Virus record (IMG/VR): IMGVR_UViG_3300009370_000003
Source of the DNA: a virus
Strand: one strand, 5' to 3'
Length of the DNA: 64,000 nucleotides
Positions within the stretch are counted from its first letter, which is position 1. Every line of letters begins with the position of its first letter. The notes under the pieces were generated by a model. The model saw only the letters and a program-made list of their open reading frames with translations, had not been told where the DNA came from and did not search any database. The position numbers were made by a program, and so were the translations under genes. Shown here one piece after another: positions 2,857-57,427 of this stretch.

Positions 2857-4261
2857 GTTTATTAGTCAATAAGAACTTCCTAGTAGGATTAATCATTAGA
2901 TTAGCTCTTCCCATAAAATCTCTATTCGCTAAAAAAGGAATCTTCCCTCTTTGGTCTAGACTTACTTCTTGTTCATATATAGTATTTAAGAAGTTTAATT
3001 CACACTTGACTATTGGTCTTTCTTCTGCTGGTTTTAATAGAGTTACCATTCTAACTAAAGGTTTCTTATATGTTTTACCATTCCGTTTGTAGTGAACAAC
3101 CTTGCCTTTGACCTCATGAGAGTCCGCGTGTAATGCACAAACACTCGTGTTGTTACCTGTGTCCAGTTTAACTGTCATAGCTTCTCCATCGACTTCTATG
3201 GTCTCTAGAACACCACATTCAGTTGCACTCTTTCTCCATGTCTCTCTGTCAAAGAAATCTTCTATAATTGTTTCACAAACTTCATCACCTAACACTTCGG
3301 ATATTCCTTGGGTGCCCGGCGAATGGTTTACCTCTAGCATGAACGGGTCTTCCTTCTCTCTGTTTCCAGCTGGGATAAAATCTACTCCTACCCATTGACC
3401 ACCTACAGCTTTTGCAGCTCGTAGACATGCTTCTTGTTCGATATCGGTTAGTTCAATCTCTTCGGCGTCTGCACCTTGAGATATGTTTGAACGAAAATCG
3501 TCAATGATTTTTTTCCTCTTCATTGCACCAATGACTTTCTTATTGTTAATCATGACACGGACATCATATTCCATATCAATATACTCTTGCAAAAGAATAT
3601 CACAAGTCGGGTCAATCTTATAGACAAGACTAACGGTAGACTGTAATGACCTTTCGGTTTCTACTAATAGAACTCCAACTCCTTTTGCACCCTGTAATGT
3701 TTTTAACACCATAGGGAATTCATTATCTAATGTTTCAGCTGCACGCTGAACTGTCTCATTCTCTTCATTAGGTATCAACACTGTTCTCGGTTGATTCATT
3801 CCTATCTCTTGAAGTCTTAAGTAAGTTCTAAACTTATCTGAACATACCTCAATACATTCTCTTGAGTTTACAACTGGGAATCCATATCTTTCTAATTGGG
3901 ATATTAAATCAAGATAAGAATCTTTAGATACTACTGCACCTCTAACTATAACCAAAGTATCAGCGTCCATAACAAATCCTTTTTCATCGTCCTCGTTGTG
4001 GATTGTTATAACACCGTCATCGGTTCGCTCCAAGTATGCACCATTAATCTTACACGAGTAAACCTCAATCTTATTTTCTTTTGCAATGTTATATAACTTA
4101 CTGGAAGTGGATAAAGGTTTCTTAACTACGGGTTTGTCTGAGTTCTTCTTTTTCTTCTTGACCATGCGTCGTTCAGCAATGACAACTAACCTATACGGTT
4201 TGTCATTACCTTTCGCCTCTGTTAGGAGTTCGTTAAACGACTTCATTTTATTGTTCCTCAT
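2828..4261 (-). CDS. RimK-family ATP-grasp ligase fused to a C-terminal aspartic/RimB-like protease domain (probable start MKSF at ~4246)
   Basis: DKFRTY, PMVLKTLQGAKGVGV, QEYI, FRSNISQG, GVDFI and LEVNHSPG; C-terminal KLDTGN. Confidence 0.85.
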   Translation of the reverse strand: MRNNKMKSFNELLTEAKGNDKPYRLVVIAERRMVKKKKKNSDKPVVKKPLSTSSKLYNIAKENKIEVYSCKINGAYLERTDDGVITIHNEDDEKGFVMDADTLVIVRGAVVSKDSYLDLISQLERYGFPVVNSRECIEVCSDKFRTYLRLQEIGMNQPRTVLIPNEENETVQRAAETLDNEFPMVLKTLQGAKGVGVLLVETERSLQSTVSLVYKIDPTCDILLQEYIDMEYDVRVMINNKKVIGAMKRKKIIDDFRSNISQGADAEEIELTDIEQEACLRAAKAVGGQWVGVDFIPAGNREKEDPFMLEVNHSPGTQGISEVLGDEVCETIIEDFFDRETWRKSATECGVLETIEVDGEAMTVKLDTGNNTSVCALHADSHEVKGKVVHYKRNGKTYKKPLVRMVTLLKPAEERPIVKCELNFLNTIYEQEVSLDQRGKIPFLANRDFMGRANLMINPTRKFLLTNKHDDTDEDKA

Positions 4262-4878
4262 TCGGAGTTGCCCACTGGAATTATATTTCCTGCGACACTT
4301 ATTCTTTCTTTATCTGTCTCATAGTGTGGAAAGACAAAGTGTTGAAGCCATGAAGGGAACATTATTATTTGTCCTCTTTCTGGCCAGTGATTAAATTGAC
4401 TCCAATTCATGTATTGTTCTTCACCATATCTTAATTGTAAGTGACCTGCTAGTTCCGTGTTTCTTGCATTGTCGAACTTATTATTTATGGTTTCTGCCCT
4501 GCTTAATTCATTTTTAATATAAATTACAAATGAGAACATACCAGTATGAGCATGTGCTGGATTGAATTCCATATACCTTTGTATGTTAACCCACAATGCA
4601 TCTATCTCAACTCTATCTGTTTCAGTCGGTCGCGCACCAGTGTCATAATAGAGTTGATTAACATGCTGAAGGATATGTCCTTTACATGCATCACTGGTTA
4701 AAGGAAGAATTTGATATTGGTCATCTATCCTTCCAGCAAGACCTTCTCTCATTGAGAATGACTCGTCATTGGTTGCAGTCTCAATGGACTGTTCCATTTC
4801 TTCAATATACTTGGGGTCTATCTGACTAATATAAACGGGTGGGCCGAAAGGGAATAGGGTGCTGAGTTCTTGATTCAT
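4258..4878 (-). CDS. 2OG-Fe(II) oxygenase-like protein
   Basis: WVNIQ..EFNPAHAH...FPSWLQHFV...RISVAGN. Confidence 0.85.
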   Translation of the reverse strand: MNQELSTLFPFGPPVYISQIDPKYIEEMEQSIETATNDESFSMREGLAGRIDDQYQILPLTSDACKGHILQHVNQLYYDTGARPTETDRVEIDALWVNIQRYMEFNPAHAHTGMFSFVIYIKNELSRAETINNKFDNARNTELAGHLQLRYGEEQYMNWSQFNHWPERGQIIMFPSWLQHFVFPHYETDKERISVAGNIIPVGNSE

Positions 4879-5204
4879 TTAACTAACTTAACAAATGCTT
4901 CTGCGTCTACTACGACTAATGGTTTACTTCTGTTTCTTTTAATCACTACCACTGGTTCATAACCTTTACAGTTCTGTTCTGCTTGTTCATAGGCTGCCCA
5001 TACATTAACCTTCTCTTGGTTCTTACATTCTACACTATACGGGAATATCTGTCTAGACTGTTTCCCTAAGATAATGTCTTCACCTTGGGAACCCATAGGT
5101 CGGGATTCTAAATCTTCTTCGTCTAAGCCTAGTTGTTCTACCAGCAACTTAGCAAACCACTGTTGTAGTTTTCTTCCTTTAGCCTTTGCTGATGAGGTTT
5201 TCAT
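4875..5204 (-). CDS. PD-(D/E)XK endonuclease / Holliday-junction resolvase-like protein
   Basis: KAKGR..QQW, GEDI and SVECKNQE motifs. Confidence 0.75.
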   Translation of the reverse strand: MKTSSAKAKGRKLQQWFAKLLVEQLGLDEEDLESRPMGSQGEDIILGKQSRQIFPYSVECKNQEKVNVWAAYEQAEQNCKGYEPVVVIKRNRSKPLVVVDAEAFVKLVK

Positions 5205-5555: not shown

Positions 5556-6194
5556 TTATATTAAGTCTCTGTTACTCTCGGCATTATCTACCTTAACTGT
5601 CTTGCAGTTAATCAGGCCCCAAGGGATTTCTATCTCTTGGTCTTCGGGAATATAAAGTTGATTGATTTCTGAATTGTTGCATGTATGGATTGCGTCATAG
5701 ATTGTTTCTACGATAGGTTCTCCATGCAAATTAAAAGAAGTATTAAAGACAATAGGAGTTCCATTCCTTTCTCCTAATGCTTTGATAAGGTCATAATAGT
5801 TTTTGTTTTGTTCTCTGTTAACTGTCTGTATCCTACAGGTGTTATCGGTATGAACTAATGAGGGTATCTCCTCTAATGCTTTCTCGGTGCATTGTAAAGC
5901 AAATGACATATAAGGACTAGACTTTAATTGTCCTAGGTGAACATACTCATGTGCATGTTCTTCTAAGATAGTGCAAGCAAACGGTCTGTAGTATTCTCTC
6001 TTCTTAACTTCATTAACTATATCCTTTGCATCAGAATTAGTTGGGTCAAAGAGTATAGACCTATTCCCTAATGCACGAGGGCCCCATTCAGATTCCCCTT
6101 GGAACATTCCAAAGATTTGTTGCTTGTCTACTAGCAAATCTATAACTGTATCTAAGTCTCGGTGAATGTCTGTTGATATGTATTGACCACTCAT
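5556..6194 (-). CDS. carbamoyltransferase C-terminal (YrdC-like) domain
   Basis: GPRALGNRSIL, KREYYRPFA, HTDNTCRIQTV and NTSFN motifs. Confidence 0.92.
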   Translation of the reverse strand: MSGQYISTDIHRDLDTVIDLLVDKQQIFGMFQGESEWGPRALGNRSILFDPTNSDAKDIVNEVKKREYYRPFACTILEEHAHEYVHLGQLKSSPYMSFALQCTEKALEEIPSLVHTDNTCRIQTVNREQNKNYYDLIKALGERNGTPIVFNTSFNLHGEPIVETIYDAIHTCNNSEINQLYIPEDQEIEIPWGLINCKTVKVDNAESNRDLI

Positions 6195-7399
6195 AGCTCT
6201 TCTCCTAAATTCAATGAACGAGCTAATCTAATTGCAGAACCTATTGCTGTTCCAGCGTCATTTGCAACTGGGTCAACAAAGAATTGATAGTCAGGGAAAG
6301 CGTCTAGATACTTTGCATTGTTCGTGCAGTTCAACGCATACCCACCACTCAACAAAATGTTTTTGCAGTCGGGGTTATTATCTATTCCTTTCTGTATTAA
6401 CTTACAAGTTAAATCATATGAATTCTGTTCTATAAGATTGCACATGGAATGTATTGAGATATCAGGATAGTCACTATCCTTTTGGTATTCGTGTATTGCA
6501 GCTGCACCCATAACTTTACCTGCGGAGCGACCTAACTTATCAAATCCAAAATACATAGAAGCAGCTGAGAAGTTCATACCATTACTTGGTGCAGAACTAA
6601 TCACTATCTCTGCGTCTAATCCTTCTAAAGTAAGTTCGGGTGTATAGGTTAAAGCATGCTTCATTTCATTAGGGAAACACCTGTTAGTCAGCTGATCTAG
6701 TGACCTCATATTACTTAGTCGCTGGTATTGCAACTTGGGGTGTTTAAAAGGACTGCACAAATAGATACTCTCTACTTCTTGATAGTTCGGATAATCTTTA
6801 TGGAATCGACATGCACCACCACCGTCTTGAACGATACAGATAGCTTCCTCTTCTTCCTCAAAGTATTCACTAAAGTAATACCCACACTCTGCATGATAGA
6901 TATGGTGTTCTATCTCATAGTGGAATTCCTCTAGACCTAATTGCTTTGCAACAGTTGCGTGCATGTCATCGTCGCGAGGCGAATCGGTATAGGAGTGTTC
7001 AACCCCGTTATACTTAAAGACTGGTTTGCTCTCAATGTTCTCACCCCACTCCCCGAAGTGTTCTTTATACTTCTCTTTGATTGCTTGTATGCGCTCATAG
7101 CTGAGTTGTTCTTCTTTACAGAACTCTAGGATTTCTCTTTGTAGCTTTCTATTCTTTTGAGAGAGATTTTCAAATCCCCAATCATATATCCTGCGGTCAA
7201 ACGAAGCACCAATGAAATGGTCGGGTTGTTCAATGTTTTTACTCTCTATGATATGAGAGTGCATGTGACTGTCGTCAGGACTGTAATGCTTTGCTCTACG
7301 AAATCTATCTTCGTAGTATAAGAAATCTACTTCCCACTTGTCAGTATCAAACTGTGCAAGGGAAGTGTCATGACTCGAATTGTATCCAATGATTTTCAT
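6191..7399 (-). CDS. carbamoyltransferase N-terminal (Kae1-like) domain
   Basis: HDTS, EDRF.R.KH, HHIYHA, DGGG, GKVMG, SGGYALNC and DAGTAIG motifs. Confidence 0.88.
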   Translation of the reverse strand: MKIIGYNSSHDTSLAQFDTDKWEVDFLYYEDRFRRAKHYSPDDSHMHSHIIESKNIEQPDHFIGASFDRRIYDWGFENLSQKNRKLQREILEFCKEEQLSYERIQAIKEKYKEHFGEWGENIESKPVFKYNGVEHSYTDSPRDDDMHATVAKQLGLEEFHYEIEHHIYHAECGYYFSEYFEEEEEAICIVQDGGGACRFHKDYPNYQEVESIYLCSPFKHPKLQYQRLSNMRSLDQLTNRCFPNEMKHALTYTPELTLEGLDAEIVISSAPSNGMNFSAASMYFGFDKLGRSAGKVMGAAAIHEYQKDSDYPDISIHSMCNLIEQNSYDLTCKLIQKGIDNNPDCKNILLSGGYALNCTNNAKYLDAFPDYQFFVDPVANDAGTAIGSAIRLARSLNLGEEL

Positions 7400-39158: not shown

Positions 39159-40448
39159 CTATTTATCCCCTTTCTTCCTTAATAACATGCGTTCACGCCA
39201 TTTCAGTGCAAGTTTGTTTGAGGGAAACTTAGAAGTCCATGTCATTAATTTACCATATAATGTGTTTGCTTTCTTATCTAAAGAAGCTAGGTCATCGTCA
39301 TTCTTAATCTCTATGAAATCCTTTTTGAATATAGATTTATATTCGGCTGCATTCTTTTGTGCAGCGTCCCAGTCACCTTTAACAATTTCGGGTGGGAGTT
39401 TTCTTGCACGAAGTTGATTTCTTTTCTGTGCATTGTCGAGACTTGCATTTACAAATACCATTTTGTATTCGTATCCTAACTTATCTAATAGTTTCTTATA
39501 TCCTTTAATTTTAGATGATCTTGCACTGGTAGTATCAAAGATTAATCCTAACCTTCCACCAATATAACTTTCTAAACTTTTCTTTGTAATTGCTTTTGCC
39601 TTTGCACGAATTGGGTCACGAAGGGCAGCGTCCATATCTCTTAAATCGAGACTAAGTCCAGCCTTCTTAAGTCCATTCTCAAATGCTTTATCAGTGTTGA
39701 CCATTCTTAGTCCTAGTGCTTTCAGAGCTAACTTCTTAACAACTGCAGATTTACCACTGCCCGGCCCACCTGATAGGAATACTGCTTTGAATATACCTTG
39801 GTCATATACTCCTTCTTTAACTAAGTCTTCTAGGATATATGTGGGTAGGACTCCTTCATTGATTCCCATACCCTTTCTAATTGCTTTGTATAGTGCCTCT
39901 TGGTCTCTCTTATTCTTAGAAGGGACTCCTTGTTTAAAGTTATCAAAGTCATCGTCTTCTGCATATGCTCTCATTTTACTTGCAGACATTCCTGATACAT
40001 CATCTGCGTCAGGGTCACGCTCTCCAGCTGATACAATGTTAATTGATTTGAAGTTATAAAACCCGTGTCTTGCTTTTACATTATTGTATTTTGTTATAAG
40101 GTTCTGAAATTCTTTTACTCTATCTGAACCGACAACCATGTTAATTGAACTATATCCTTTTTCATGTAAGAAATTACAAATGTCAAATACAGTTCTTATA
40201 GCTGAATCATTAATCATAACTTTCTTACCAAAGAACTTCTTAAGATATTTTATCTTGTCTTTGTGTGTAAGAGGATTCTTTTTCTTATCATTAGAATGAG
40301 AAGTAAATAACATAATGTCATCTGCTCTAACCTTTCTTAGTTTCTCTACTAATTTTGCGTGTCCTGTGGTGGGTGGATTAAAGCGACCAAAAGTGAATGT
40401 CACACTTTTATCTTTTGCTTCTGTTAGCCATTTACCAAATTGTTTCAT
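39159..40448 (-). CDS. cytidyltransferase-like nucleotidyltransferase fused to a P-loop (zeta-toxin/AAA_33-like) kinase
   Basis: FGRFNPPTTGH, VGSDR, SAGERDPD and SASKMR; then KAVFLSGGPGSGKS. Confidence 0.85.
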   Translation of the reverse strand: MKQFGKWLTEAKDKSVTFTFGRFNPPTTGHAKLVEKLRKVRADDIMLFTSHSNDKKKNPLTHKDKIKYLKKFFGKKVMINDSAIRTVFDICNFLHEKGYSSINMVVGSDRVKEFQNLITKYNNVKARHGFYNFKSINIVSAGERDPDADDVSGMSASKMRAYAEDDDFDNFKQGVPSKNKRDQEALYKAIRKGMGINEGVLPTYILEDLVKEGVYDQGIFKAVFLSGGPGSGKSAVVKKLALKALGLRMVNTDKAFENGLKKAGLSLDLRDMDAALRDPIRAKAKAITKKSLESYIGGRLGLIFDTTSARSSKIKGYKKLLDKLGYEYKMVFVNASLDNAQKRNQLRARKLPPEIVKGDWDAAQKNAAEYKSIFKKDFIEIKNDDDLASLDKKANTLYGKLMTWTSKFPSNKLALKWRERMLLRKKGDK

Positions 40449-46245: not shown

Positions 46246-47244
46246 TTAACTTTCTTCTAAGCTTTCTTCGTCATCGTCTGTTATGCCAATGGCTCTGATA
46301 AGTGAATGAACTTCATCACCACCATCATTGTATAGTTTTTGAAGTCCTCGTCTCAATAGGTTTCTAGCTACTGATTCGATTTTCTTACCAGCAATCAAAG
46401 GTTTGATAAAGTCTGCTTGTGGTGTATTACCACCGTTTGTCATTTCTGCAAATGTGTTTTTGATTTCAGTGATAGACGCAGTGTTAACTGTCACCTCATT
46501 TTCATTTGCACTTAAGAGTGCAGCCATACCTAATAATAGATTTACTGACATAGTTTTCACATTTGGATATGCTTTCCTGATAACTTCGGAAGCTTCAACC
46601 ATAAACCTTGAATCTACAGATTCCCAGTTTTTGTCGAACATTCCAAAACCACCTAGGTCATATGCATCTGTATCAAGGTTGGTATTACCGACATTCAATT
46701 TACATCTTTTTAGTAATGCAAGTTGATCCATTGCAGTTGAGTCTCTAAAGACAACCTTTGCTCTAAAGATTTCATCAGGTGCCATTGAGGTTTGATCTGC
46801 ATTACGAGTTTTAAACATTTTTGCTTCGATTCTTTGACACTTAGCTTCTGAATGAGTAATGTCATGTGTAAATATAGAAGTTTTAATACCTAAAAGACCA
46901 ACGATTGCAGCCATGATACTTCTGTGGAATCCGTCCCATACGAACTTTCTTCCATCAGGTCTGACTGCAAGGTCAACATGACCTGCTACTGCTTTATCAA
47001 AACCACCGCTGTCAATCAAACGATTGATTAGTCTTTGGATTTTGAGTTTTCTTTGGTAAGTCAAATCAACATAGATATCAGACAAAGGAATTAAATCCTC
47101 ACCTGTATATGGTGATGCTGGTTTGAGTTTTTTAAGAGTGTCAAATTTGAAATTATCTATTTGCAAGATAATCATTATGATATCCGAAAGTTTGACGACT
47201 TCCGACATTGCACCGATTTGTGCAAACGCTTGTGACTTCTTCAT
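46246..47244 (-). CDS. ParB/Srx-like (DGxHR) domain protein
   Basis: VDLTYQR...V.DGFHR...EAKMF...N. Confidence 0.7.
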   Translation of the reverse strand: MKKSQAFAQIGAMSEVVKLSDIIMIILQIDNFKFDTLKKLKPASPYTGEDLIPLSDIYVDLTYQRKLKIQRLINRLIDSGGFDKAVAGHVDLAVRPDGRKFVWDGFHRSIMAAIVGLLGIKTSIFTHDITHSEAKCQRIEAKMFKTRNADQTSMAPDEIFRAKVVFRDSTAMDQLALLKRCKLNVGNTNLDTDAYDLGGFGMFDKNWESVDSRFMVEASEVIRKAYPNVKTMSVNLLLGMAALLSANENEVTVNTASITEIKNTFAEMTNGGNTPQADFIKPLIAGKKIESVARNLLRRGLQKLYNDGGDEVHSLIRAIGITDDDEESLEES

Positions 47245-48454: not shown

Positions 48455-50959
48455 TTATCCAAAAAATGAGTCAAGACTAGCAACTGGTTCAACATTCCAG
48501 CCAATTAAACTAATAACAACCTTCAAAGGGTCTACGAATGCTTTATCAAATTGCATATCGTAATCTATAAATCTATGTAAATCTAATTCTCTAGGTAATA
48601 CATTAAGGAATGCAATGACATTCTCATTAATAGGATTAGGGGTTGACAAATAACTGAAATGTATCTTCTCACCATTCTTAACCATTTCATATCTTCTATC
48701 GATATTCTTCTTCTTAAGGTGGTGGTTATATAACAAGGAACCTCTTACATGAATCGGAGTTCCTTTTGAATAGATATGTGTTGGGTCTGCATACTGAACT
48801 AATCCTTTACACCCTCTAGGAAATGCAACTTCCTCGGGTGGTAAATTCCTAAACTCTTTTCGGGCATTCTCAACAAACTCCCACAAGTCTGTTTCTTCAC
48901 CATTCATAACAACTTGAAAAGCCTCTGTGAGTTTTCCTCTAACCCATTGTGGTGTTGAACTCTTTGCAGTTTCAATACCCATCATTTTAAGTTTAGGAGT
49001 TTTTAATCTGACCCCTTCGTTATCATGCACATTAAGAATATATCGTTTCTTTGCAGTCCAAATACCACGGTCTGCAATAATCTCTCTGCCCATTTCCATT
49101 TTGTTTTGATATGCATTTGTATATTCTGCAAGTTCGTCAAACCCTTCAGCAAGAACTTTCTCAATCAAACCTTCGGAGCTGTTTAAGAAGTCTACAATCT
49201 TACCCTTGTTTGTTTCTTCGGGAAGAACTCTTTGAACTAATTTATCCATAGTAATATAAAGTGAATCAGTATCCATTGCAATTACATAATCTTCATTATC
49301 AGTTTCAAGAGTTTTGTTTAAGAATTCGTTTATGGTTTTCTCAGCCCACTGAATGATTAGTTGCCCGCTAGTGGTGATTGCTTCTGCAAGGTCGACACTA
49401 AAGAAAGCAAAGTATTGATTTGCAAGAGCTCCGTATGCTGAATTGAGTGCAATCTTTCGAACCATTTGATTGTTATTAGCTCTCTTAATTAAAGTATCGA
49501 GTTCTTTTCGTCTTGGTTTATCTGCACTCTGATATTCAATTTGATAGTCAATCATTTTCCTCTTCCAAGCCTTTCTCTCGTCATAGAACTTCTCCATGAG
49601 TTCGGGAAGAAAACCTTGTCGGTTTCGTGTAAACTTTGCACCGTTAGGACAAACAGTATTATTCTCTTTCTTTAAATGACTAAGGTCAACTTCTCTATTG
49701 AGTAAAGACTTAATAGAAACCTCTTCCTTTGCAGACTTAACCATTTTCTCGGGTGAGATATTATGTTGCATAATGATATGTGGGTATAGAGAATTTAAAT
49801 CAAAACTCACAACCCAATCATGTCCACCAACTAATGGTTCTTTAACATATGCACCTATGATACGACTTGTCTTCTCACGAGACATTTTTTGTGGTGGTGT
49901 TTGGATATTCTGTTCTTTTAAGAAGTTATAGATTATGGTTTCCCAATACTTAACCATACCAAATGTATCATTATAATTACACTTTGCATTATAAGACATT
50001 GTTTGAACCAACTCAATCAGTCCAAGTTTCTCTTCTAGTTCTTCAACTAATACAGCGTCAACAACATTATACTCTAAAAACTTTTCATAATCTTGTCGAT
50101 AAAGTGTGTGTAAGTTTCCATACTCTGAATAATCTAACTTACCTTTACCAAGTTCAATGTGTGAAATATGGTTTAATGAATAGGATTCTTGATTTACAAA
50201 AGTATGTTTCCTATAGAGCTCGAGATAATCAAGAACATTAATCCCATAAAGATTGAATACTTGTTGTTTTTGATATCCTTGTGAAACGAATTCTCTAACA
50301 TCTGACATTCCCCATGGAGATAATTTCTTATGTTCGTCTTCTCCAATAATTTTATCAATACGATTACAAAGATAAGTTATATCAAAAGAGTTTACATTCC
50401 AACCAGTGATAATATCGAATGATTCCTTTCTCCAGTATTTGATAAACTGCATTAAAAGGTCTGCTTCATTTGTGCAAGGACGATAATCATAATTCTTACC
50501 ATGATTCCATTCACCAAGACCGAATACTACTGGAGGTTTACCAAATGGTTTCATAGTGATTGCATTAACCTTCTCGCCTGCAATCATAGGCTCAGGAAAT
50601 CCGTCTTCACACTCACACTCAATATCGAGTGAAGCTGTCTTAATTAATTTTGGATTGAATTCTATATCACCTTGAAACTTATCTGCAATATAGGTGTAGA
50701 TATATTTGTCGTATCCGTGGATTTCAAATCCGTCAACGGCATTATATCTTTCTCGAAACTTTCTTGCACCACCCATGGAGTTAAGATTAACTGCCTCAAG
50801 GGGTCTTCCGTCTAATGCACGGAATGCTGTTTCTCCTTTTTTTGAGGGTATGTAATGGTTGGGACGATATGCAACGGAAAGTTTTAATTGTTTCTTTCCT
50901 TTGTATCCCTTGACTAAAATTTTATCTCGTGTGCGACAAACATTTGTATAAAAATCCAT
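48455..50959 (-). CDS. family B DNA polymerase (T4 gp43), uninterrupted
   Basis: DIE, GWN..FD, FDLNSLYP, KIALNSAYG, DTDS and KKRY. Confidence 0.98.
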   Translation of the reverse strand: MDFYTNVCRTRDKILVKGYKGKKQLKLSVAYRPNHYIPSKKGETAFRALDGRPLEAVNLNSMGGARKFRERYNAVDGFEIHGYDKYIYTYIADKFQGDIEFNPKLIKTASLDIECECEDGFPEPMIAGEKVNAITMKPFGKPPVVFGLGEWNHGKNYDYRPCTNEADLLMQFIKYWRKESFDIITGWNVNSFDITYLCNRIDKIIGEDEHKKLSPWGMSDVREFVSQGYQKQQVFNLYGINVLDYLELYRKHTFVNQESYSLNHISHIELGKGKLDYSEYGNLHTLYRQDYEKFLEYNVVDAVLVEELEEKLGLIELVQTMSYNAKCNYNDTFGMVKYWETIIYNFLKEQNIQTPPQKMSREKTSRIIGAYVKEPLVGGHDWVVSFDLNSLYPHIIMQHNISPEKMVKSAKEEVSIKSLLNREVDLSHLKKENNTVCPNGAKFTRNRQGFLPELMEKFYDERKAWKRKMIDYQIEYQSADKPRRKELDTLIKRANNNQMVRKIALNSAYGALANQYFAFFSVDLAEAITTSGQLIIQWAEKTINEFLNKTLETDNEDYVIAMDTDSLYITMDKLVQRVLPEETNKGKIVDFLNSSEGLIEKVLAEGFDELAEYTNAYQNKMEMGREIIADRGIWTAKKRYILNVHDNEGVRLKTPKLKMMGIETAKSSTPQWVRGKLTEAFQVVMNGEETDLWEFVENARKEFRNLPPEEVAFPRGCKGLVQYADPTHIYSKGTPIHVRGSLLYNHHLKKKNIDRRYEMVKNGEKIHFSYLSTPNPINENVIAFLNVLPRELDLHRFIDYDMQFDKAFVDPLKVVISLIGWNVEPVASLDSFFG

Positions 50960-50965
50960 TATATA

Positions 50966-50994
50966 ATTATACTACGGAAGGTCTATTCTGTCAA
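50966..50994 (-). promoter_or_regulatory. gp43 promoter
   Basis: TTGACA-N17-TATAAT, perfect consensus. Confidence 0.85.
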
Positions 50995-51204: not shown

Positions 51205-51645
51205 TTATACTCCTAAAACTTGTTCTTGTAATTCTTTAGACCTACGGCCTACTTGTCTAAACCAACGGCTATCTTCCATTTGAGCTGCCATTTCTTTCCA
51301 GTCTCTAATCTCAACTGCATGAAGCATATTTTTAAATTTACCTAATCTGTTTGCACCAAGATTAAAACACATATTCACTAATACATGTTGTATGTTTTCG
51401 GGTAAAGTATCAAAATCTGATACTAAGTGTTTTGCTTCAATTACATGTTTGTCAAAGTCGTCATCATAATATATGTCAACTACTTCTTGACTAACTGGGG
51501 TTCCTGCTGGTTTTCCGTATTCGGGGTCAGACTTCTGTATCAAATGTCCAACACCAAGTGTAAGGTATCCAAGGGAGTCTTCATATATTTCTAAGACCTC
51601 GCCTTCGTGTCTCTTAATCTGTTCCTTCAATACTTCTCTGTTCAT
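51205..51645 (-). CDS. lysozyme (GH24/T4L-like endolysin)
   Basis: HEG....Y.DSLG..T.G.GH, NMCFNLG and DSRW..QV..R. Confidence 0.92.
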   Translation of the reverse strand: MNREVLKEQIKRHEGEVLEIYEDSLGYLTLGVGHLIQKSDPEYGKPAGTPVSQEVVDIYYDDDFDKHVIEAKHLVSDFDTLPENIQHVLVNMCFNLGANRLGKFKNMLHAVEIRDWKEMAAQMEDSRWFRQVGRRSKELQEQVLGV

Positions 51646-51928
51646 TTTTGTCCCTCTCGACTTGTTCCTCTAGGAGTTCCACTAGGATATCTCCCATAAG
51701 CTTTTCTAATGTATCATTATTTAGTAGTTCGTCCATTGTCAAATTTTCATCGTTAGGAAGTCTACGAATTGTTCGTTGAAAATTTAAATGTGGTTTACCT
51801 TCAACAAACTCCACATTACCATACTGATACACTAACCCTTCAAATTCTCCACTGACTATTTCTATGCCAGCATCTTTCTCATGTGGATTTTCTACCACTT
51901 GAAATACATTTTTAAATAATTTTGACAT
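51614..51928 (-). CDS. conserved hypothetical protein
   Basis: G.F.G.VYQYG.V...GDILVELL. Confidence 0.65.
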   Translation of the reverse strand: MSKLFKNVFQVVENPHEKDAGIEIVSGEFEGLVYQYGNVEFVEGKPHLNFQRTIRRLPNDENLTMDELLNNDTLEKLMGDILVELLEEQVERDKNEQRSIEGTD

Positions 51929-52944
51929 TAGTCTCCTAAGAAACTATCTAAGCTACCATGTTTGTCTCTATGATGGTGTCCGATAGGATTCTCTGTTTTA
52001 CCTCTTACACCTTTTGTTGCAACATCACTTCCACAATATGCAACACATGTATGTCTGACACCTTCACCTTTAATTTGAGTCACACCATGCAATTCATTTG
52101 AATCTGCAATAATAACATCACCATCATCTGCATCGATACCAATTCCATATCTTGGGAATGATAGATATGCGCCTTCAAAATCTCCACAACGAAATACACA
52201 CATTGTTGTCATTCCAAAATCTAAATCGTCACCGTCAATATGTGCAGACATTTTTCCAGCACCTTCAACATATGAATATTTGTTTGCAGATATAGAAGTG
52301 AACGGAGCTCCTTGCAACCAGTATTTTTCTTCAACACACTCATCACAAAAATCTCTTTGTTTTTTCCAAACTTCGGGGGCCCCTATTTTTAATGCTTGTT
52401 CATTTAGAACTGCTATCTCTTGCATGCTTTCCCACTTCTCTTGGTTTCTTTTTAGTTTTGCCCAACCACTTAAACCAATCATTCCCGTAAATCTTCCTCT
52501 CTTATGTCCCATAAAAATAGAATGAATAGGGTTTGCTTCTGCAATTCGATTGAACTCACCATTTTTCTTTAGTGGATAGTATGAGTTTGCAGTTCTTAAT
52601 TTATAATGAACTCCCTCTATCATACCTTTCTTTGCCATTTCATCTTTATCAATAGGGCCAGCTGCATTTGCACGAAGTGTAGATACATCTTCAATAGATT
52701 GAACTGTTGACCTTAATTCTTCTAACTTCTCACCTTCGTATACGCCTTTAACAATACATGCAAGTAGAGGTGGTTCCTCTCCAAGTGTAGATACTGGTTT
52801 ATAAATCTTGGTTAACTCGTGGTCTGTTCCCACGGTAGATACTAGGTCTGTGACTTCACTTCCGTCTAACCACTGACCGTTATACTTCTCCATAGTTTCT
52901 TTAAAACCATGGTCAACTGTTGGTGTGTGTGTTCTAATTGACAT
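51928..52944 (-). CDS. TET/JBP-like 2OG-Fe(II) dioxygenase
   Basis: PFTSISAN, SAHIDGDD, GAYLSFPRY, GDVII.D..ELHGVT and RHTCVAY; coupled to the C5-MTase. Confidence 0.8.
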   Translation of the reverse strand: MSIRTHTPTVDHGFKETMEKYNGQWLDGSEVTDLVSTVGTDHELTKIYKPVSTLGEEPPLLACIVKGVYEGEKLEELRSTVQSIEDVSTLRANAAGPIDKDEMAKKGMIEGVHYKLRTANSYYPLKKNGEFNRIAEANPIHSIFMGHKRGRFTGMIGLSGWAKLKRNQEKWESMQEIAVLNEQALKIGAPEVWKKQRDFCDECVEEKYWLQGAPFTSISANKYSYVEGAGKMSAHIDGDDLDFGMTTMCVFRCGDFEGAYLSFPRYGIGIDADDGDVIIADSNELHGVTQIKGEGVRHTCVAYCGSDVATKGVRGKTENPIGHHHRDKHGSLDSFLGD

Positions 52945-54175
52945 TATACTTCTCCAAAATATTTTCTAAGACACTTTCAACTAATGCCTTAAGACAAAGT
53001 GGTGCGACCATTAATCCTATTCTTGCACCCTTGTCGTTATAATCTCCCGTACTCCTATAGTCATCGGGAAGAGTCATAATCCTTTGTAATTCCTTTGGAG
53101 TATATATCCTTTCTCCACTGGGGTGAAAATGATTACCACCCATAAACTTTGGTTGACACCCTTGTTCAGTTAATGAATGTGCAGCTTGAGTCCAAGGTAC
53201 AATCCTTGACATGTAATAAGAATGTTTTTCATCTTCGGGGTCAATGATACCCCTTGCAATTTGTTCTTTGAACCACGGGCCAACGATATCGTCTCCAATA
53301 CTAACAACCCTTTCCATATTATTTATGCCCCTCATACCTAAGCATGGGCCCGAGTTGGGATAGTCAGGGTGAGTATCAAATCCAAATACCCAATGAGCCT
53401 TTGAAGAATGTCTCAAAGATTCTTCTAGGTATTTTGCATCGGTTATGTTTTGTTCGTCATCTTGTAAGTCTTCTATTGCATCTCTTACAGTCCATTCTTT
53501 TTGAGAAGGTTCAGGAAATACACTTCCTAAAACCATCCATGGCATTCCAATTTTATCTAATACATCATTACGAACTGCAAGTATAAATGTTCTTTCTCTT
53601 TTTTGTGGAACTCCATGTTGGGCTGCATTCATAACTTTATAAACTGCAGAATATCCTTGTGCTTCAAAGTCTGTAATCATTCTATTCAAATGGTCTCTTG
53701 CATAGTCCATTGTAAGACCTTTTACATTTTCACAAATAACAATCTTGGGTTGGAGTTCACCAGTAATTCTAATTACTTCCCAAGTTAAATCTTCAATGTT
53801 TTCTTGCTTCATTCCATATGCAATCTTCTCTTTGTTCCAACCTTCTCGTTTTGATCCAGCCATTGAAAATGGCGGACAAGGTGGACTTGCATCTAGAATA
53901 TCTATTTCACCAACTCCTAGTCCACTAAGTTCCATGATATCTTTACCAGTAACTTTTTTAATGTCTTTACATTCGTGAACTGTGTTTGGGAAATTTAAAA
54001 GGTAGGTATCAACATGAAGTTGTTGAAATTCATTCATGTATTTACAATCTCCACCTAAGAGTTTGTATGCACATGAAGAACCGCCTCCGCCAGCAAAGAA
54101 AGTTATATAATTAAACTTCTTTGTTGAAGCACCTTCTTCAAGGTCTGATAATCTATATCTAAAATATTCGTTCAT
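52934..54175 (-). CDS. DNA (cytosine-5)-methyltransferase
   Basis: FAGGGG (I), SPPCPPFS (IV), ENVKG (VI), PQKRER (VIII) and motifs IX/X. Confidence 0.93.
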   Translation of the reverse strand: MNEYFRYRLSDLEEGASTKKFNYITFFAGGGGSSCAYKLLGGDCKYMNEFQQLHVDTYLLNFPNTVHECKDIKKVTGKDIMELSGLGVGEIDILDASPPCPPFSMAGSKREGWNKEKIAYGMKQENIEDLTWEVIRITGELQPKIVICENVKGLTMDYARDHLNRMITDFEAQGYSAVYKVMNAAQHGVPQKRERTFILAVRNDVLDKIGMPWMVLGSVFPEPSQKEWTVRDAIEDLQDDEQNITDAKYLEESLRHSSKAHWVFGFDTHPDYPNSGPCLGMRGINNMERVVSIGDDIVGPWFKEQIARGIIDPEDEKHSYYMSRIVPWTQAAHSLTEQGCQPKFMGGNHFHPSGERIYTPKELQRIMTLPDDYRSTGDYNDKGARIGLMVAPLCLKALVESVLENILEKYNVN

Positions 54176-54195
54176 AAAAAAATCCCACTAAACAT

Positions 54196-54232
54196 ATTAT
54201 ATTATATTTAGCGAGATTTGACTAGAGGGTTT
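54196..54232 (-). promoter_or_regulatory. promoter with AAACCCTCTAGTCA element driving MTase-TET
   Basis: TAGTCA-N17-TATAAT; TAAATA inside the spacer. Confidence 0.7.
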
Positions 54233-54234
54233 TA

Positions 54235-54768
54235 CTATCCAACGAAGTCCTCGCCTTCGTTCCATGCACAACCAGTTAGTCCACCAGCTTGTAGTGCCCT
54301 TACAGTTCTTAGAACTTCTTGTGGGTTTCTACCAGTGTCTAATGCATTGCTTGATGCATGTTGGATTACTCCATCAGGGTCGATAATAAATGTTGCTCTA
54401 TAGCATACACCATTTTCTATATCTACCACACCAAGGTCGCTTGATAATCTAAGTCCAGTGTCAGCTGCAAGCGTATGTTGAATATTACCTATCAACTCAT
54501 TATCTTGTTTCCATGCTAATTTACAAAACTCGTTATCACCACTGATACCGATAACTGATACACCCGCGTCTACCAATGCATCAAATCCAGCAATCTCTGT
54601 TGGACAGATAAAAGTAAAGTCTTTTGGATAAAAGTAAACCACTGACCAACCTTGAAGCCAGTCATTGTCTGCTGTCACAAATTCATTAAACTTATTAATC
54701 CCCTCTAATGAGAAGTCGGGGAATTGTTCACCTACTGTTTTCATAACATCTCCCTTAAAGGATTCCAA
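54235..54768 (-). CDS. ahpC: 2-Cys peroxiredoxin (probable start MKTVG at ~54743)
   Basis: FYPKDFTFICPTE, RATFIIDP and GRN..E. Confidence 0.93.
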   Translation of the reverse strand: MESFKGDVMKTVGEQFPDFSLEGINKFNEFVTADNDWLQGWSVVYFYPKDFTFICPTEIAGFDALVDAGVSVIGISGDNEFCKLAWKQDNELIGNIQHTLAADTGLRLSSDLGVVDIENGVCYRATFIIDPDGVIQHASSNALDTGRNPQEVLRTVRALQAGGLTGCAWNEGEDFVG

Positions 54769-54965
54769 CTATAATCGTAAGTGGAGAGTGTTCTAGTCCC
54801 ACCTTGACTTGCTATAGTATTACATAACTTAATCATTTCTCTATCTGTCAAATCATTAAGATATTTGTTTAGGTCTGCTTCTATTGCGACTCTGTCATTT
54901 TTTGCACACTCTTGTATGCCCTCTTCTTTTTTCATAATTACTCCATAATAAAATGATACCACCAT
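54741..54965 (-). CDS. hypothetical protein
   Basis: ORF after a TATACA-N18-TATAAT promoter; probable start MKKEE. Confidence 0.5.
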   Translation of the reverse strand: MVVSFYYGVIMKKEEGIQECAKNDRVAIEADLNKYLNDLTDREMIKLCNTIASQGGTRTLSTYDYSWNPLREML

Positions 54966-55001
54966 TATATCACATAACAGTGGTATCTGTATAGTGGGTT
55001 T

Positions 55002-55412
55002 CTATGAAATTTTGATAGAAACTGGTTTGTCTTCTTCGGGAATGACTCTCTCTAAGTTGACACTCAATATACCGTTTTTATACACTGCACTGGCGATTTC
55101 TACATCGTCTGCAAGTGTAAATCTACGGTTGAATGCTCTAGAAGCTAATCCTTTATGGACAAAGTCCTTCTCAGAATCTTCTGAACTACCCTCGATAACA
55201 AGAATGTTTTTCTCTTTAGTAACAGAAATTTCCTTCTTATCGAATCCAGCAACAGCAAGTTCAACGGTGAAATTTTCATCGTCTACTTTTACCACATTGT
55301 ATGGTGGATAGTTTGATTGTGAGATTGTAGACATTCTTTCGAGGTCTTCGAAATATCTATCAAATCCTATTGCGAACGGTCTGAATTGACCAAATATATC
55401 TAAATGCGTCAT
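55002..55412 (-). CDS. small heat-shock protein (Hsp20/IbpA family)
   Basis: IGFDR, YPPYN, ELAVAGF, HKGLA.R.F and NGIL. Confidence 0.96.
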   Translation of the reverse strand: MTHLDIFGQFRPFAIGFDRYFEDLERMSTISQSNYPPYNVVKVDDENFTVELAVAGFDKKEISVTKEKNILVIEGSSEDSEKDFVHKGLASRAFNRRFTLADDVEIASAVYKNGILSVNLERVIPEEDKPVSIKIS

Positions 55413-55473: not shown

Positions 55474-55530
55474 TATTTATAATACTTATATACCTATTAT
55501 ATGGGTTTTTTCAAAAATTTCAAGAGGGTT
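55474..55530 (-). promoter_or_regulatory. stacked hsp20 promoters (sigma32-like/sigma70-like plus T4 late)
   Basis: CTTGAAA...CCCATATAAT, then TATAAATA at 55474-55481. Confidence 0.6.
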
Positions 55531-57427
55531 TTTGTAATTTTCTTAATTTCCTATCAATTAAAGGTGCATATATCTTAACTGGAATTTCCTTTCCTTTAAC
55601 ATTTATTTCGTCAAGATACTGCCATTCACAATCAACTTGTTTCTTTGTGAACTCTGACATTATAATTGGAGTGTCATATTGCCTTGTTTGGACTTCGAGT
55701 CTAGCTGCAAGGTTAACAGCGTCACCGACAACTGAATAATCGAATCGTGCTTCACTTCCCATGTTTCCGACAATGCATGGGCCTGTATTAATTCCCGTGC
55801 CAATGACTACTGGTGGTAAATCTAATCCTTCCCTTTCTATATCTATATTCATTTGTTCTGTTAATAGTTCTATTTCTATTGCAGATTTCAAAGCCATTTG
55901 TGCATGGTCAGGGCAATCAAGAGGAGCTCCCCAAAATGCCATCAAGCAGTCACCCATATATTTGTCGATGGTTCCACCATTTGCTAGGACAATTTTAGAC
56001 ATACCGTCTAGGAATCTATTAATTAGTTCCACTAATCCTTCGGGGTCGTCATTCTTCATGTATGCTTCTGATATTGGAGTGAACCCAACTATGTCTGCGA
56101 AGAGGAATGAAAGTTCTCTTCTATCTCCACCAAGTTTCAATAATTCAGGGTTTTTTTGGAGTTCTTCAACCATGTCAGGAGATAAATATTTTTGAAACTG
56201 CTTCTTAATAAGTTCTTTGAGTTGATAAGTTGTATAGTATTTGTTGAAGGAAGCATGTCCGAAAACTATAATGGAGGCAATCGATGAGTAGAAAGTATCG
56301 AAAAGAACGAGAGATGAAGACCACCAATAGAGAGACCCACCCACCTGAAATCCAACGAAGACTAGAGAAGCTATCCCCGCAACGGCTGTGGGAAGTGTGT
56401 AGACCATTACCAATATTCCTAGAAGGACTGTCAGCAGAAGAGCGAGAGATAAGAATTCAAGATAGTAGGATTGTTGTATTCGAACATCTTGCAAAACGGT
56501 TTGGAGAAGTGAGGCTTGAACTTTATGAGGATACATTACACCCACTGGGGTTGAAACTGGATTATTAAGTCCCTCTGCAGTTAATCCCCAAATCAGTATC
56601 TTACCTTCAAGGTCTGAGTTGGGTAAATCCATTGCAGATATTCTCTCAAAATCGAACCAGTATCCAATTTGAACATCTGCAGTTGAGGTTGTTTCTATGG
56701 GAGGGCTCCTACCCATTCGAATCCACTCGATTCCAGCTTCTTCCGTGACTCGTGTTTGATAATTCTTATGGTCACCAAATGCACGAAGAACCTCTAGTGC
56801 AACCGAAGGATATACAACATCATTTGCAGATACTATTAATGGTGCTGAACGGATTGTCCCGTCAAAGTTTGGTGTTCCTGAAATACTAGGTGTTGTGACT
56901 GTCACTCCTGAACCATACGAATTCTGTTTCAGGATATCAACTGGTGAAGCAATGCCAGAGAAGCTCCAAATATGGTCTTTTATCTCGCCGTCACCGAACA
57001 CCGAAGTCTTAACAAATGGTGCAGACCCAGTATCTAATTGAGTTGTGGGTGCAGCTGATAAAATCGATAGCCGATTAACTAATCCTTCTGCAAAAGCTTC
57101 GTCCCCTGAAAACCTATCAGGGTTTTTAAACAACTGGGTAAATACATGAGTGTTGGTATAATGTGATTCCAACATTATATCTGCATAGATATTTCTCGGC
57201 CATGGGTATTGACCATACTTCTGTAGTGACTTCTCGTCTATGTCTACTAGAACTATGTTATCGGTTTGTTCTATTTCTTTTGATTGGTGTAGGAAGTCAA
57301 ACCAAGACCATGTAACATTCTCAATAAGATATGGATTCCATACCTTAAGTCCGAATAATAACGAGACAGTTATTAATACTGTCTTCCACGAGTACATTAT
57401 GTTATCCAACAAACTGGATATACACAC
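55520..57427 (-). CDS. CHASE2-domain membrane adenylate cyclase (class III; probable start MYSW at 57397)
   Basis: IVLVDIDE.SL..YG.YPWPR (CHASE2), TMs, FADIVGFT, DKYMGD, GINTG and YSVVGDAVNLAARLE. Confidence 0.93.
   Translation of the reverse strand: MCISSLLDNIMYSWKTVLITVSLLFGLKVWNPYLIENVTWSWFDFLHQSKEIEQTDNIVLVDIDEKSLQKYGQYPWPRNIYADIMLESHYTNTHVFTQLFKNPDRFSGDEAFAEGLVNRLSILSAAPTTQLDTGSAPFVKTSVFGDGEIKDHIWSFSGIASPVDILKQNSYGSGVTVTTPSISGTPNFDGTIRSAPLIVSANDVVYPSVALEVLRAFGDHKNYQTRVTEEAGIEWIRMGRSPPIETTSTADVQIGYWFDFERISAMDLPNSDLEGKILIWGLTAEGLNNPVSTPVGVMYPHKVQASLLQTVLQDVRIQQSYYLEFLSLALLLTVLLGILVMVYTLPTAVAGIASLVFVGFQVGGSLYWWSSSLVLFDTFYSSIASIIVFGHASFNKYYTTYQLKELIKKQFQKYLSPDMVEELQKNPELLKLGGDRRELSFLFADIVGFTPISEAYMKNDDPEGLVELINRFLDGMSKIVLANGGTIDKYMGDCLMAFWGAPLDCPDHAQMALKSAIEIELLTEQMNIDIEREGLDLPPVVIGTGINTGPCIVGNMGSEARFDYSVVGDAVNLAARLEVQTRQYDTPIIMSEFTKKQVDCEWQYLDEINVKGKEIPVKIYAPLIDRKLRKLQKPS

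Follow-up and report, generated by a model that had tools for sequence, protein, structure and literature searches.

Paired genes for a cytosine C5-methyltransferase (C5-MT) and a TET-like dioxygenase are already known from phages, having been published and tested in 2021 by Burke et al. (PNAS, PMC8256090), who screened marine viromes for parallel C5-MT/TET pairs. When tested in E. coli, methylases of clades I and II made 5-methylcytosine (5mC) at GpC and TETs of clades A and B converted it to 5-hydroxymethylcytosine (5hmC); the tested members of clades I/A yielded Gp5mC and then Gp5hmC only, clade I enzymes were reported not to methylate GpCA, and clade I/A genes co-occurred with genes for a heat-shock protein (HSP) and a redoxin, accompanied by a P-loop kinase or else by a glycosyltransferase (PMC8256090). 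Here we describe such a pair in the IMG/VR virus record IMGVR_UViG_3300009370_000003, of which one stretch of 64,000 nucleotides (64 kb, hereafter the window) was analysed. A DNA cytosine C5-methyltransferase of 413 aa (52934-54175) is followed by a TET/JBP-family Fe(II)/2-oxoglutarate (2OG) dioxygenase (5-methylpyrimidine dioxygenase) of 338 aa (51928-52944), both encoded on the minus strand. An initial annotation of the sequence had proposed that the two are coupled to produce 5hmC against restriction, on the precedent of phage pairs that convert cytosine to 5mC and then 5hmC, a precedent that the work of Burke et al. supplies. Since the Pfam matches, a TET2-like fold, the conserved pairing (methyltransferase directly upstream in 57 of 58 loci), a clade I/A neighbourhood and a GpC footprint in the restriction sites all agree, the pair is best read as an anti-restriction system of this kind, and it is very likely that it forms a two-enzyme post-replicative module in which GpC methylation is followed by 5hmC formation on the phage DNA.

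The methyltransferase matches PF00145 (DNA_methylase, Pfam) with an E-value of 1.1e-49 over profile positions 1-322 of 324, and its motifs stand in the canonical order: motif I (FAGGGG, residues 27-32), motif IV (SPPC, 97-100, with the catalytic Cys100), motif VI (ENV, 149-151), motif VIII (QKRER, 191-195) and motif X (RIGLMVAP, 385-392). By homology with the tested clade I enzymes its target is predicted to be GpC. Its gene overlaps that of the TET protein, as the initial annotation had noticed, by 11 nt (ATGTCAATTAG), and a GGAG lies 7 nt ahead of the TET ATG.

The TET protein matches the Tet_JBP profile PF12851 at 44.4 bits, against a gathering score of 34.9, over residues 171-303 (profile positions 34-161 of 164). 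The HxD, distal H and R motifs that had first drawn attention to it are all present (HIDGDD, 235-240; ELHG, 284-287; RHTCVAY, 297-303), and from the HxD...H...R pattern H235, D237 and H286 are assigned as iron ligands and R297 as the 2OG arginine. Across 31 aligned homologues, with identities of 41-93%, these four residues and Y303 are invariant, together with most of the segment KRGRFTG (148-154), in which R149 or R151 is a candidate for the second arginine that binds C1 of 2OG (R1261 of hTET2, R224 of NgTET1). The R-x-T-x-V-x-Y spacing is that of human TET2. The corresponding Arg, Val and Tyr have been reported to be conserved in phage TETs (Burke 2021, PMC8256090). Seven other open reading frames (ORFs) of the window match generic 2OG-oxygenase families (2OG-FeII_Oxy_3, 2OG-FeII_Oxy_5 and DUF6445), and since none of them reaches the Tet_JBP cut-off, the best scoring 17.6 bits, the TET protein is indeed set apart from the other oxygenases around it, as had been proposed from its motifs.

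The fold leads to the same assignment. An AlphaFold model of the TET protein (pLDDT 88.7, pTM 0.87) returned solely TET-family structures at the top ranks of a Foldseek search (TET2 with an E-value of 3.4e-13, then NgTET1, CcTet and CMD1), with FTO and AlkB about seven orders of magnitude worse. Alignment of the model with VIA-align gave Z scores of 23.0 for TET2 (275 residues, 3.8 Å), 18.9 for NgTET1, 17.8 for CMD1 and 16.0 for CcTet, compared with about 14 for AlkB and FTO. The top folds are all 5mC dioxygenases, and no clustering with non-nucleic-acid oxygenases was seen. Since neither phmmer nor a profile of the 31 sequences matched any TET in the PDB by sequence, the link to the TETs rests on the Pfam profile and the fold. 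Human TET2 (4NM6/7NE6) and Naegleria NgTET1 (4LT5) share with the window protein the fold and the pattern of iron and 2OG ligands, including R-x-[ST]-x-V-x-Y, but the window protein lacks a Cys-rich or CXXC domain and its sequence similarity to the eukaryotic enzymes is undetectable beyond the Pfam profile. By homology, the pair would also differ from the eukaryotic TETs in acting at GpC rather than CpG, in oxidising by a single step and in serving the protection of phage DNA rather than epigenetic erasure. The predicted reaction of the TET protein is the conversion of Gp5mC to Gp5hmC.

A search of IMG/VR found 333 related stretches, and 69 distinct loci were taken from the best 80, with TET proteins 59-95% identical to that of the window. 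Among these 69, 58 leave room for a methyltransferase, and 57 of those have it directly upstream of TET. An exact 38-mer of the window TET gene had no match in IMG/VR. A large protein collection yielded 120 homologous proteins; among 185,579 prokaryote genomes (GTDB) no relative was found. The window locus resembles the clade I/A clusters of Burke et al. in having a co-directional C5-MT followed by a Tet_JBP dioxygenase with HxD...H...R, in having an HSP20 and an AhpC-type redoxin upstream and a lysozyme and a DNA polymerase nearby, and in its marine T4-like phage setting. Clade A/B 5mYOX genes have a parallel C5-MT within five genes, and here the methyltransferase is directly upstream and overlapping; the HSP and redoxin characteristic of clade I/A are found as HSP20 (55002-55412, minus strand; PF00011, E 1.9e-19), in a synteny kept in the IMG/VR loci, and as an AhpC/TSA peroxiredoxin (54235-54768, minus strand; PF00578, E 2.3e-26) directly upstream of the methyltransferase. 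We therefore place the pair, as judged from sequence, probably in clade I/A. The window differs from these clusters in having no P-loop kinase or glycosyltransferase and in having a 104-aa gene (orf104) directly after TET.

Amongst cultured phages, the four Melnitz isolates are the only ones with a close homologue of the pair in a collection of 50,697 phage records, a collection in which megablast of the region itself gave no match. In Melnitz (MZ577097), a Methylophilales phage, the methyltransferase, named hhaIM, is 56% and the TET protein 47% identical to those of the window, and the two genes are again adjacent and co-directional. The Melnitz locus differs in its order, polB, methyltransferase, TET, a 427-aa protein of unassigned function and a P-loop kinase, which is the clade II/B layout of Burke et al., and its TET gene is annotated merely as a hypothetical protein. 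A literature search on pelagimyophage methyltransferase and dioxygenase genes gave nothing specific.

By sequence, the solved structure closest to the methyltransferase is 8YF3, SpCmoX (E 3.7e-67, approximately 35% identical over the full length). SpCmoX of Synechococcus phage S-B43 transfers a carboxymethyl group from carboxy-S-adenosylmethionine (carboxy-SAM) to cytosine C5 at GC sites; three features define CmoX, namely SPPC, an Arg350 that takes the place of HhaI Asn304 and binds the carboxy-SAM carboxylate, and a CmoA encoded alongside (PMC12783734). A rival reading is that the window enzyme would be a CmoX-type carboxymethyltransferase making 5-carboxymethylcytosine, with the dioxygenase acting on that base or on something else. 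Apart from being the nearest structure, SpCmoX has SPPC (97-100 in the window enzyme) in common with it and acts at GC, the target predicted for the window enzyme, and in cyanophage S-CRM01 (3303-5140 of that locus) the clamp loader is separated from regA, a small HSP and polB by the genes for a CmoA-like methyltransferase and a CmoX homologue. Since these genes occupy a region equivalent to that of the methyltransferase-TET pair, the two pairs look like sister cassettes. The defining residue is different, however: Arg350 of CmoX aligns with Leu388 of the window enzyme, motif X reading GLMVAP against GRMVPP in S-B43 and S-CRM01, and leucine is found at this position in all 120 closest homologues reaching motif X, as well as in the enzymes of Melnitz and L016, while S-B43 and S-CRM01 have arginine. 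A hydrophobic residue facing the transferred group would fit a methyl group and not a carboxylate. Furthermore, no homologue of CmoA or CmoY was found in the 64-kb window (best tblastn E-values 0.2 and 0.38), and the enzymes of Burke clades I and II made 5mC in E. coli (PMC8256090). Because Leu388 replaces Arg350 and the window has no CmoA, carboxymethylation is unlikely, and as an account of this pair we regard it as extremely improbable. The CmoA-CmoX-CmoY system of S-B43 (PMC12783734; 8YF3) is comparable in its homologous C5 transferase, its SPPC motif and, by prediction for the window enzyme, its GC recognition, but CmoX needs CmoA and Arg350, whereas the window enzyme has Leu388, has neither CmoA nor CmoY in the window and is paired with TET. 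The CmoA-like and CmoX genes of S-CRM01 are annotated in its record just as methyltransferases, and for that phage 5-carboxymethylcytosine would be predicted.

The pairing also bears on the possibility that the dioxygenase makes 5-hydroxymethyluracil from thymine, like clades C1/C2 and JBP, and that the neighbouring methylase is functionally independent of it. Most 5mYOX enzymes of phages are taken to be thymine-directed, and for TET89 both thymine and 5mC are substrates; the fold cannot tell specificity for thymine from that for 5mC, and there was no structure of a JBP catalytic domain among the matches. Thymine dioxygenases of clades C1/C2, however, have no neighbouring C5-MT and often lie beside a ParB activator or a glycosyltransferase (PMC13229309), whereas the window TET gene is overlapped by a C5-MT that 57 of 58 relatives likewise have immediately before TET. 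No ParB gene adjoins TET in the window, the weak ParB-like match to DUF6551 being 5 kb off at 46246-47244, and the ParB-associated homologue of pelagiphage HTVC112P is only 26% identical, compared with 47% for the methyltransferase-linked Melnitz protein. As clade A and B enzymes have been shown to oxidise 5mC (Burke 2021, PMC8256090), we consider a thymine-directed activity very improbable, and 5mC as the substrate remains the preferred reading.

The restriction sites of the phage provide evidence of a different kind. Relative to order-2 Markov expectations, ACGT is absent from the window (0 observed, 110 expected; observed/expected ratio 0.00), as are GGWCC, CAATTG (18 expected) and GTGCAC (13 expected), and GATC (23 sites, ratio 0.13), GTAC (21, 0.16) and CCGG (13, 0.24) are strongly depleted. 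The absence of four sites together with a 4- to 8-fold depletion of three others points to strong and specific restriction pressure from the host. None of the five palindromes containing GpC is avoided: GGCC occurs 63 times (ratio 1.57), AGCT 193 times (1.18), GCGC 19 times (0.89), CGCG 17 times (1.14) and TGCA 481 times (1.15). The sites that persist within depleted motifs are themselves linked to GpC, since each of the 13 CCGG sites bears a GpC at an outer C on at least one strand (background chance about 0.22 per site), eight of the nine CCNGG sites are GCCNGGC (background chance about 0.014 per site), and the single CCWGG site is GCCAGGC. The initial annotation had inferred that a sequence-specific subset of cytosines is modified against restriction; the GpC-linked footprint supports this as far as restriction is concerned, but the subset is most likely the GpC dinucleotide, which covers about 16% of cytosines, and not a long motif.

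The footprint extends to the relatives. For each locus of at least 8 kb the combined observed/expected ratio of GGCC, AGCT, GCGC and CGCG was calculated, and loci lacking the methyltransferase and TET were obtained as syntenic relatives anchored on polB. When loci are sorted by what occupies the slot between HSP20/AhpC and the orf104 homologue, the median ratio is 1.53 (range 0.76-2.28) for 33 loci with C5-MT plus TET, 1.86 (1.25-2.00) for 5 loci with an N6/N4 methylase and 0.54 (0.07-0.79) for 11 loci with no methylase. The difference between C5-MT plus TET and no methylase gave p = 1e-6 by the Mann-Whitney test, in a comparison of 33 with 11 mutually related loci that takes account of neither phylogenetic relatedness nor host. 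In the pooled loci with methyltransferase and TET, GpC palindromes are over-represented (GGCC 1.92, AGCT 1.46, CGCG 1.42); HTVC008M, which gave no TET match, avoids them (GGCC 0.28, AGCT 0.51, GCGC 0.46, CGCG 0.04). Burke et al. raised the possibilities that such modification serves mainly phage gene regulation, replication or packaging (PMC8256090), and the module does stand amid replication genes, with early expression a possibility. The footprint, however, is specific to the sites that GpC modification can or cannot cover, which would be expected of selection by restriction and not of regulation, so that a mainly regulatory role instead of restriction evasion appears improbable.

We propose that the methyltransferase would use S-adenosylmethionine to methylate cytosine after G, at GpC and probably at GpC[C/T/G], and that the overlapping, translationally coupled TET would then hydroxylate the new methyl group to give 5hmC on the DNA polymer. 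This chemistry is that of the tested relatives of Burke et al. Host restriction enzymes with a GpC inside or overlapping their sites would be blocked by the modification, and the phage would have purged from its genome the sites beyond its cover. Since the P-loop kinase that most relatives would use downstream to elaborate 5hmC is absent, 5hmC may be the final product or may be processed by genes outside the cassette.

Several points weigh against this proposal. The residue of motif X in the methyltransferase is Leu388, where the canonical residue is Asn. The placement in clade I/A is by neighbourhood and family resemblance and not by comparison with the tested enzymes TET43 and TET14. Because loci with an N6/N4 methylase are equally free of avoidance, the footprint reports protective methylation of GpC sites and not hydroxylation. 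TGCA is not avoided despite the reported failure of clade I enzymes to methylate GpCA, so part of the pattern may reflect the restriction enzymes of the hosts. Finally, Pfam scans and tblastn found in the window no P-loop kinase or glycosyltransferase that could be the usual partner of clade I/A, although this partner is a neighbourhood trait of the clade and not a requirement for the enzyme pair.

What follows TET in the relatives is instructive with regard to this last point. A P-loop kinase (PF18751, Ploopntkinase3) comes after TET in 46 of the 69 loci, preceded in 28 of these 46 by an extra gene of about 190-425 aa, mostly for a ParB-N-like protein of about 330-425 aa. Other genes follow TET in 11 of the 69, and those scanned are of glycosyltransferase type: TAGT (PF20691), DNA alpha-glucosyltransferase (PF11440), Glyco_transf_8 and an epimerase. 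TAGT, DNA alpha-glucosyltransferase and Ploopntkinase3 are known 5hmC-consuming genes, and in the relatives they stand directly after TET. Ten loci, with TET 87-94% identical to that of the window, are like the window in having nothing between TET and the 104-aa ORF. One closer relative (L003, TET 95% identical) has there a 195-aa P-loop kinase (3277-3864, Walker A motif GIPCSGKST) that overlaps both neighbouring genes, cleanly delimiting the arm of the cassette that is missing here. This kinase is 70-74% identical to its counterparts in loci with TET proteins about 63% identical to that of the window, and since it has diverged about as much as TET, the comparison suggests an ancestral kinase that the window lineage has lost.

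The absence of this arm is the only distinctive trait of the window pair. The initial annotation had noted that no glycosyltransferase is adjacent, and indeed the scanned ORFs of about 140 aa or more in the 64 kb gave no match to a glycosyltransferase family; the post-TET gene families of the relatives have no homologue in the window except for one 70-aa ORF of unassigned function. Its description of the system as cytosine hypermodification goes beyond what the window shows, because the kinase or glycosyltransferase arm is missing from the window, and for the same reason the product may stop at 5hmC. It had suggested that any further step is encoded elsewhere, and a candidate is present in the form of a TobZ/NodU-type carbamoyltransferase split into two adjacent ORFs at 5556-7399 (minus strand), of which 6191-7399 encodes the N-terminal and 5556-6194 the C-terminal domain. 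One enzyme of this family is known to carbamoylate 5hmC (PMC8670742), and most relatives elaborate 5hmC (46 of 69 loci by a kinase, 11 of 69 with other genes including glycosyltransferases), so a transferase outside the cassette could convert 5hmC to a bulkier base. The relatives' post-TET families are nevertheless missing from the window but for the one 70-aa ORF, hypermodification genes are usually clustered according to published work, and the carbamoyltransferase occurs in only one of five long records with methyltransferase and TET and also in HTVC008M. The carbamoyltransferase is therefore not linked to the module and was rejected as a linked 5hmC consumer, and elaboration by a distally encoded transferase is in our view unlikely, though deserving of consideration. 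Also rejected as the missing kinase was a 429-aa protein (39159-40448, minus strand), a cytidylyltransferase-like nucleotidyltransferase fused to a P-loop (AAA_33/Zeta-toxin-like) kinase, which has no similarity to the TET-linked kinases, is kept in relatives with and without TET and may be NadR-like. Another reading, less likely than not, is that the kinase arm was lost in the window and in the ten similar loci, and that plain 5hmC at GpC would be the terminal mark and enough for protection.

The ParB-N-like proteins of the relatives form a family of their own (L063:9098-10234, L061:9090-10079 and 29 others, 13 of which make up alignment A2), mostly of 330-425 aa and encoded between TET and the kinase. 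They carry the motif QPR...DGK..L..GFNR and have no significant Pfam match, the weak best being to Noc with an E-value of 0.27; ParB homologues are known to activate phage thymine dioxygenases (PMC13229309). In the window, a 332-aa protein at 46246-47244 (minus strand), between an SNase-like gene and a RecA-family (UvsX-like) recombinase, has a weak DUF6551 match and a ParB-like motif YQRK...RPDGRKFVWDGFHR. Its membership of the relatives' ParB-N-like family was considered, but hhalign gave a probability of 0.4% and homology is not supported.

The window has the look of a segment from a marine T4-like phage genome. It has a GC content of about 37% with nearly every gene on the minus strand, and the phage itself appears to be an uncultured marine T4-like kin of pelagimyophage HTVC008M and methylophage Melnitz. 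In the direction of transcription the locus comprises a CHASE2 adenylate cyclase (55520-57427), HSP20, a 74-aa ORF, AhpC, the C5-MT, the TET-like gene, orf104, a lysozyme (51205-51645), a 73-aa ORF and a family-B DNA polymerase (48455-50959). The protein of orf104 (51614-51928, minus strand) is acidic and belongs to phrog_3998, of unassigned function, and its only matches are weak ones, with hypothetical proteins from phages of Vibrio and Ralstonia. The start codon of orf104 has one base in common with the TET stop codon, and its gene overlaps the lysozyme gene by 32 nt, and it is probably co-transcribed. In clade A loci its homologue comes after TET or after the kinase; since syntenic loci without methyltransferase and TET also carry it, orf104 is not specific to the module.

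The initial annotation placed the two genes under one promoter. In the 59-nt gap before the methyltransferase gene, a consensus scan found TAGTCA-17-TATAAT within a long hairpin that leads into a T run. This promoter-like site at 54180-54224 (minus strand) could act as a promoter. Four close relatives (L003, L005, L006 and L007) have kept the element, and one of its base pairs shows a compensatory change from C:G to T:A. Promoter-like matches in the region are, however, no commoner than in shuffled sequence (26 against 23), so that what stands of the one-promoter proposal is the conserved element ahead of the methyltransferase, from which early expression of both genes may be driven. Two hairpins on the minus strand enclose TATAAT and are followed by T runs, one at 54955-54987 upstream of the 74-aa ORF and the other at 54180-54219 upstream of the methyltransferase, and both resemble the promoter-early stem-loop (PeSL) promoter/terminator elements of T4-type phages. 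Elsewhere, a perfect sigma-70 consensus, TTGACA-17-TATAAT (12/12), lies at 50966-50994 (minus strand) directly upstream of the DNA polymerase start, within the end of the 73-aa ORF.

The polB-anchored relatives without methyltransferase and TET (L109, L113, L118, L119, L122, L136, L137; L126, L128-L130, L139; L153, L156, L162, L163) show what else can lie in the slot between HSP20/AhpC and the orf104 homologue. It may be filled by an N6/N4 DNA methylase of 472-506 aa, by a DruA-like protein of 373-378 aa (Druantia family) with or without a radical-SAM/SPASM enzyme and a dehydrogenase, or by other genes of unassigned function, or it may hold nothing beyond an ORF of 165-179 aa. The slot thus looks like a hot spot for the swapping of DNA-protection or counter-defence cassettes.

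Phage C5-MT/TET clusters have been in the literature, with their enzymes tested, since 2021, so the pair as such is a small addition. The motif X residue that separates TET-linked methylases (Leu) from carboxymethyltransferases (Arg) offers a simple rule for annotation. If plain 5hmC is indeed the terminal mark, the two enzymes together would make up a natural post-replicative writer of 5hmC, and in its kinase-less form the pair could serve as a compact two-gene, GpC-specific 5hmC writer for epigenetic sequencing methods. For the phages themselves, the kinase-less lineage represents a natural test of whether 5hmC alone protects, and the footprint, which can be scored on any contig, is an independent, sequence-only sign that GpC modification works in nature and protects the phages that carry it.

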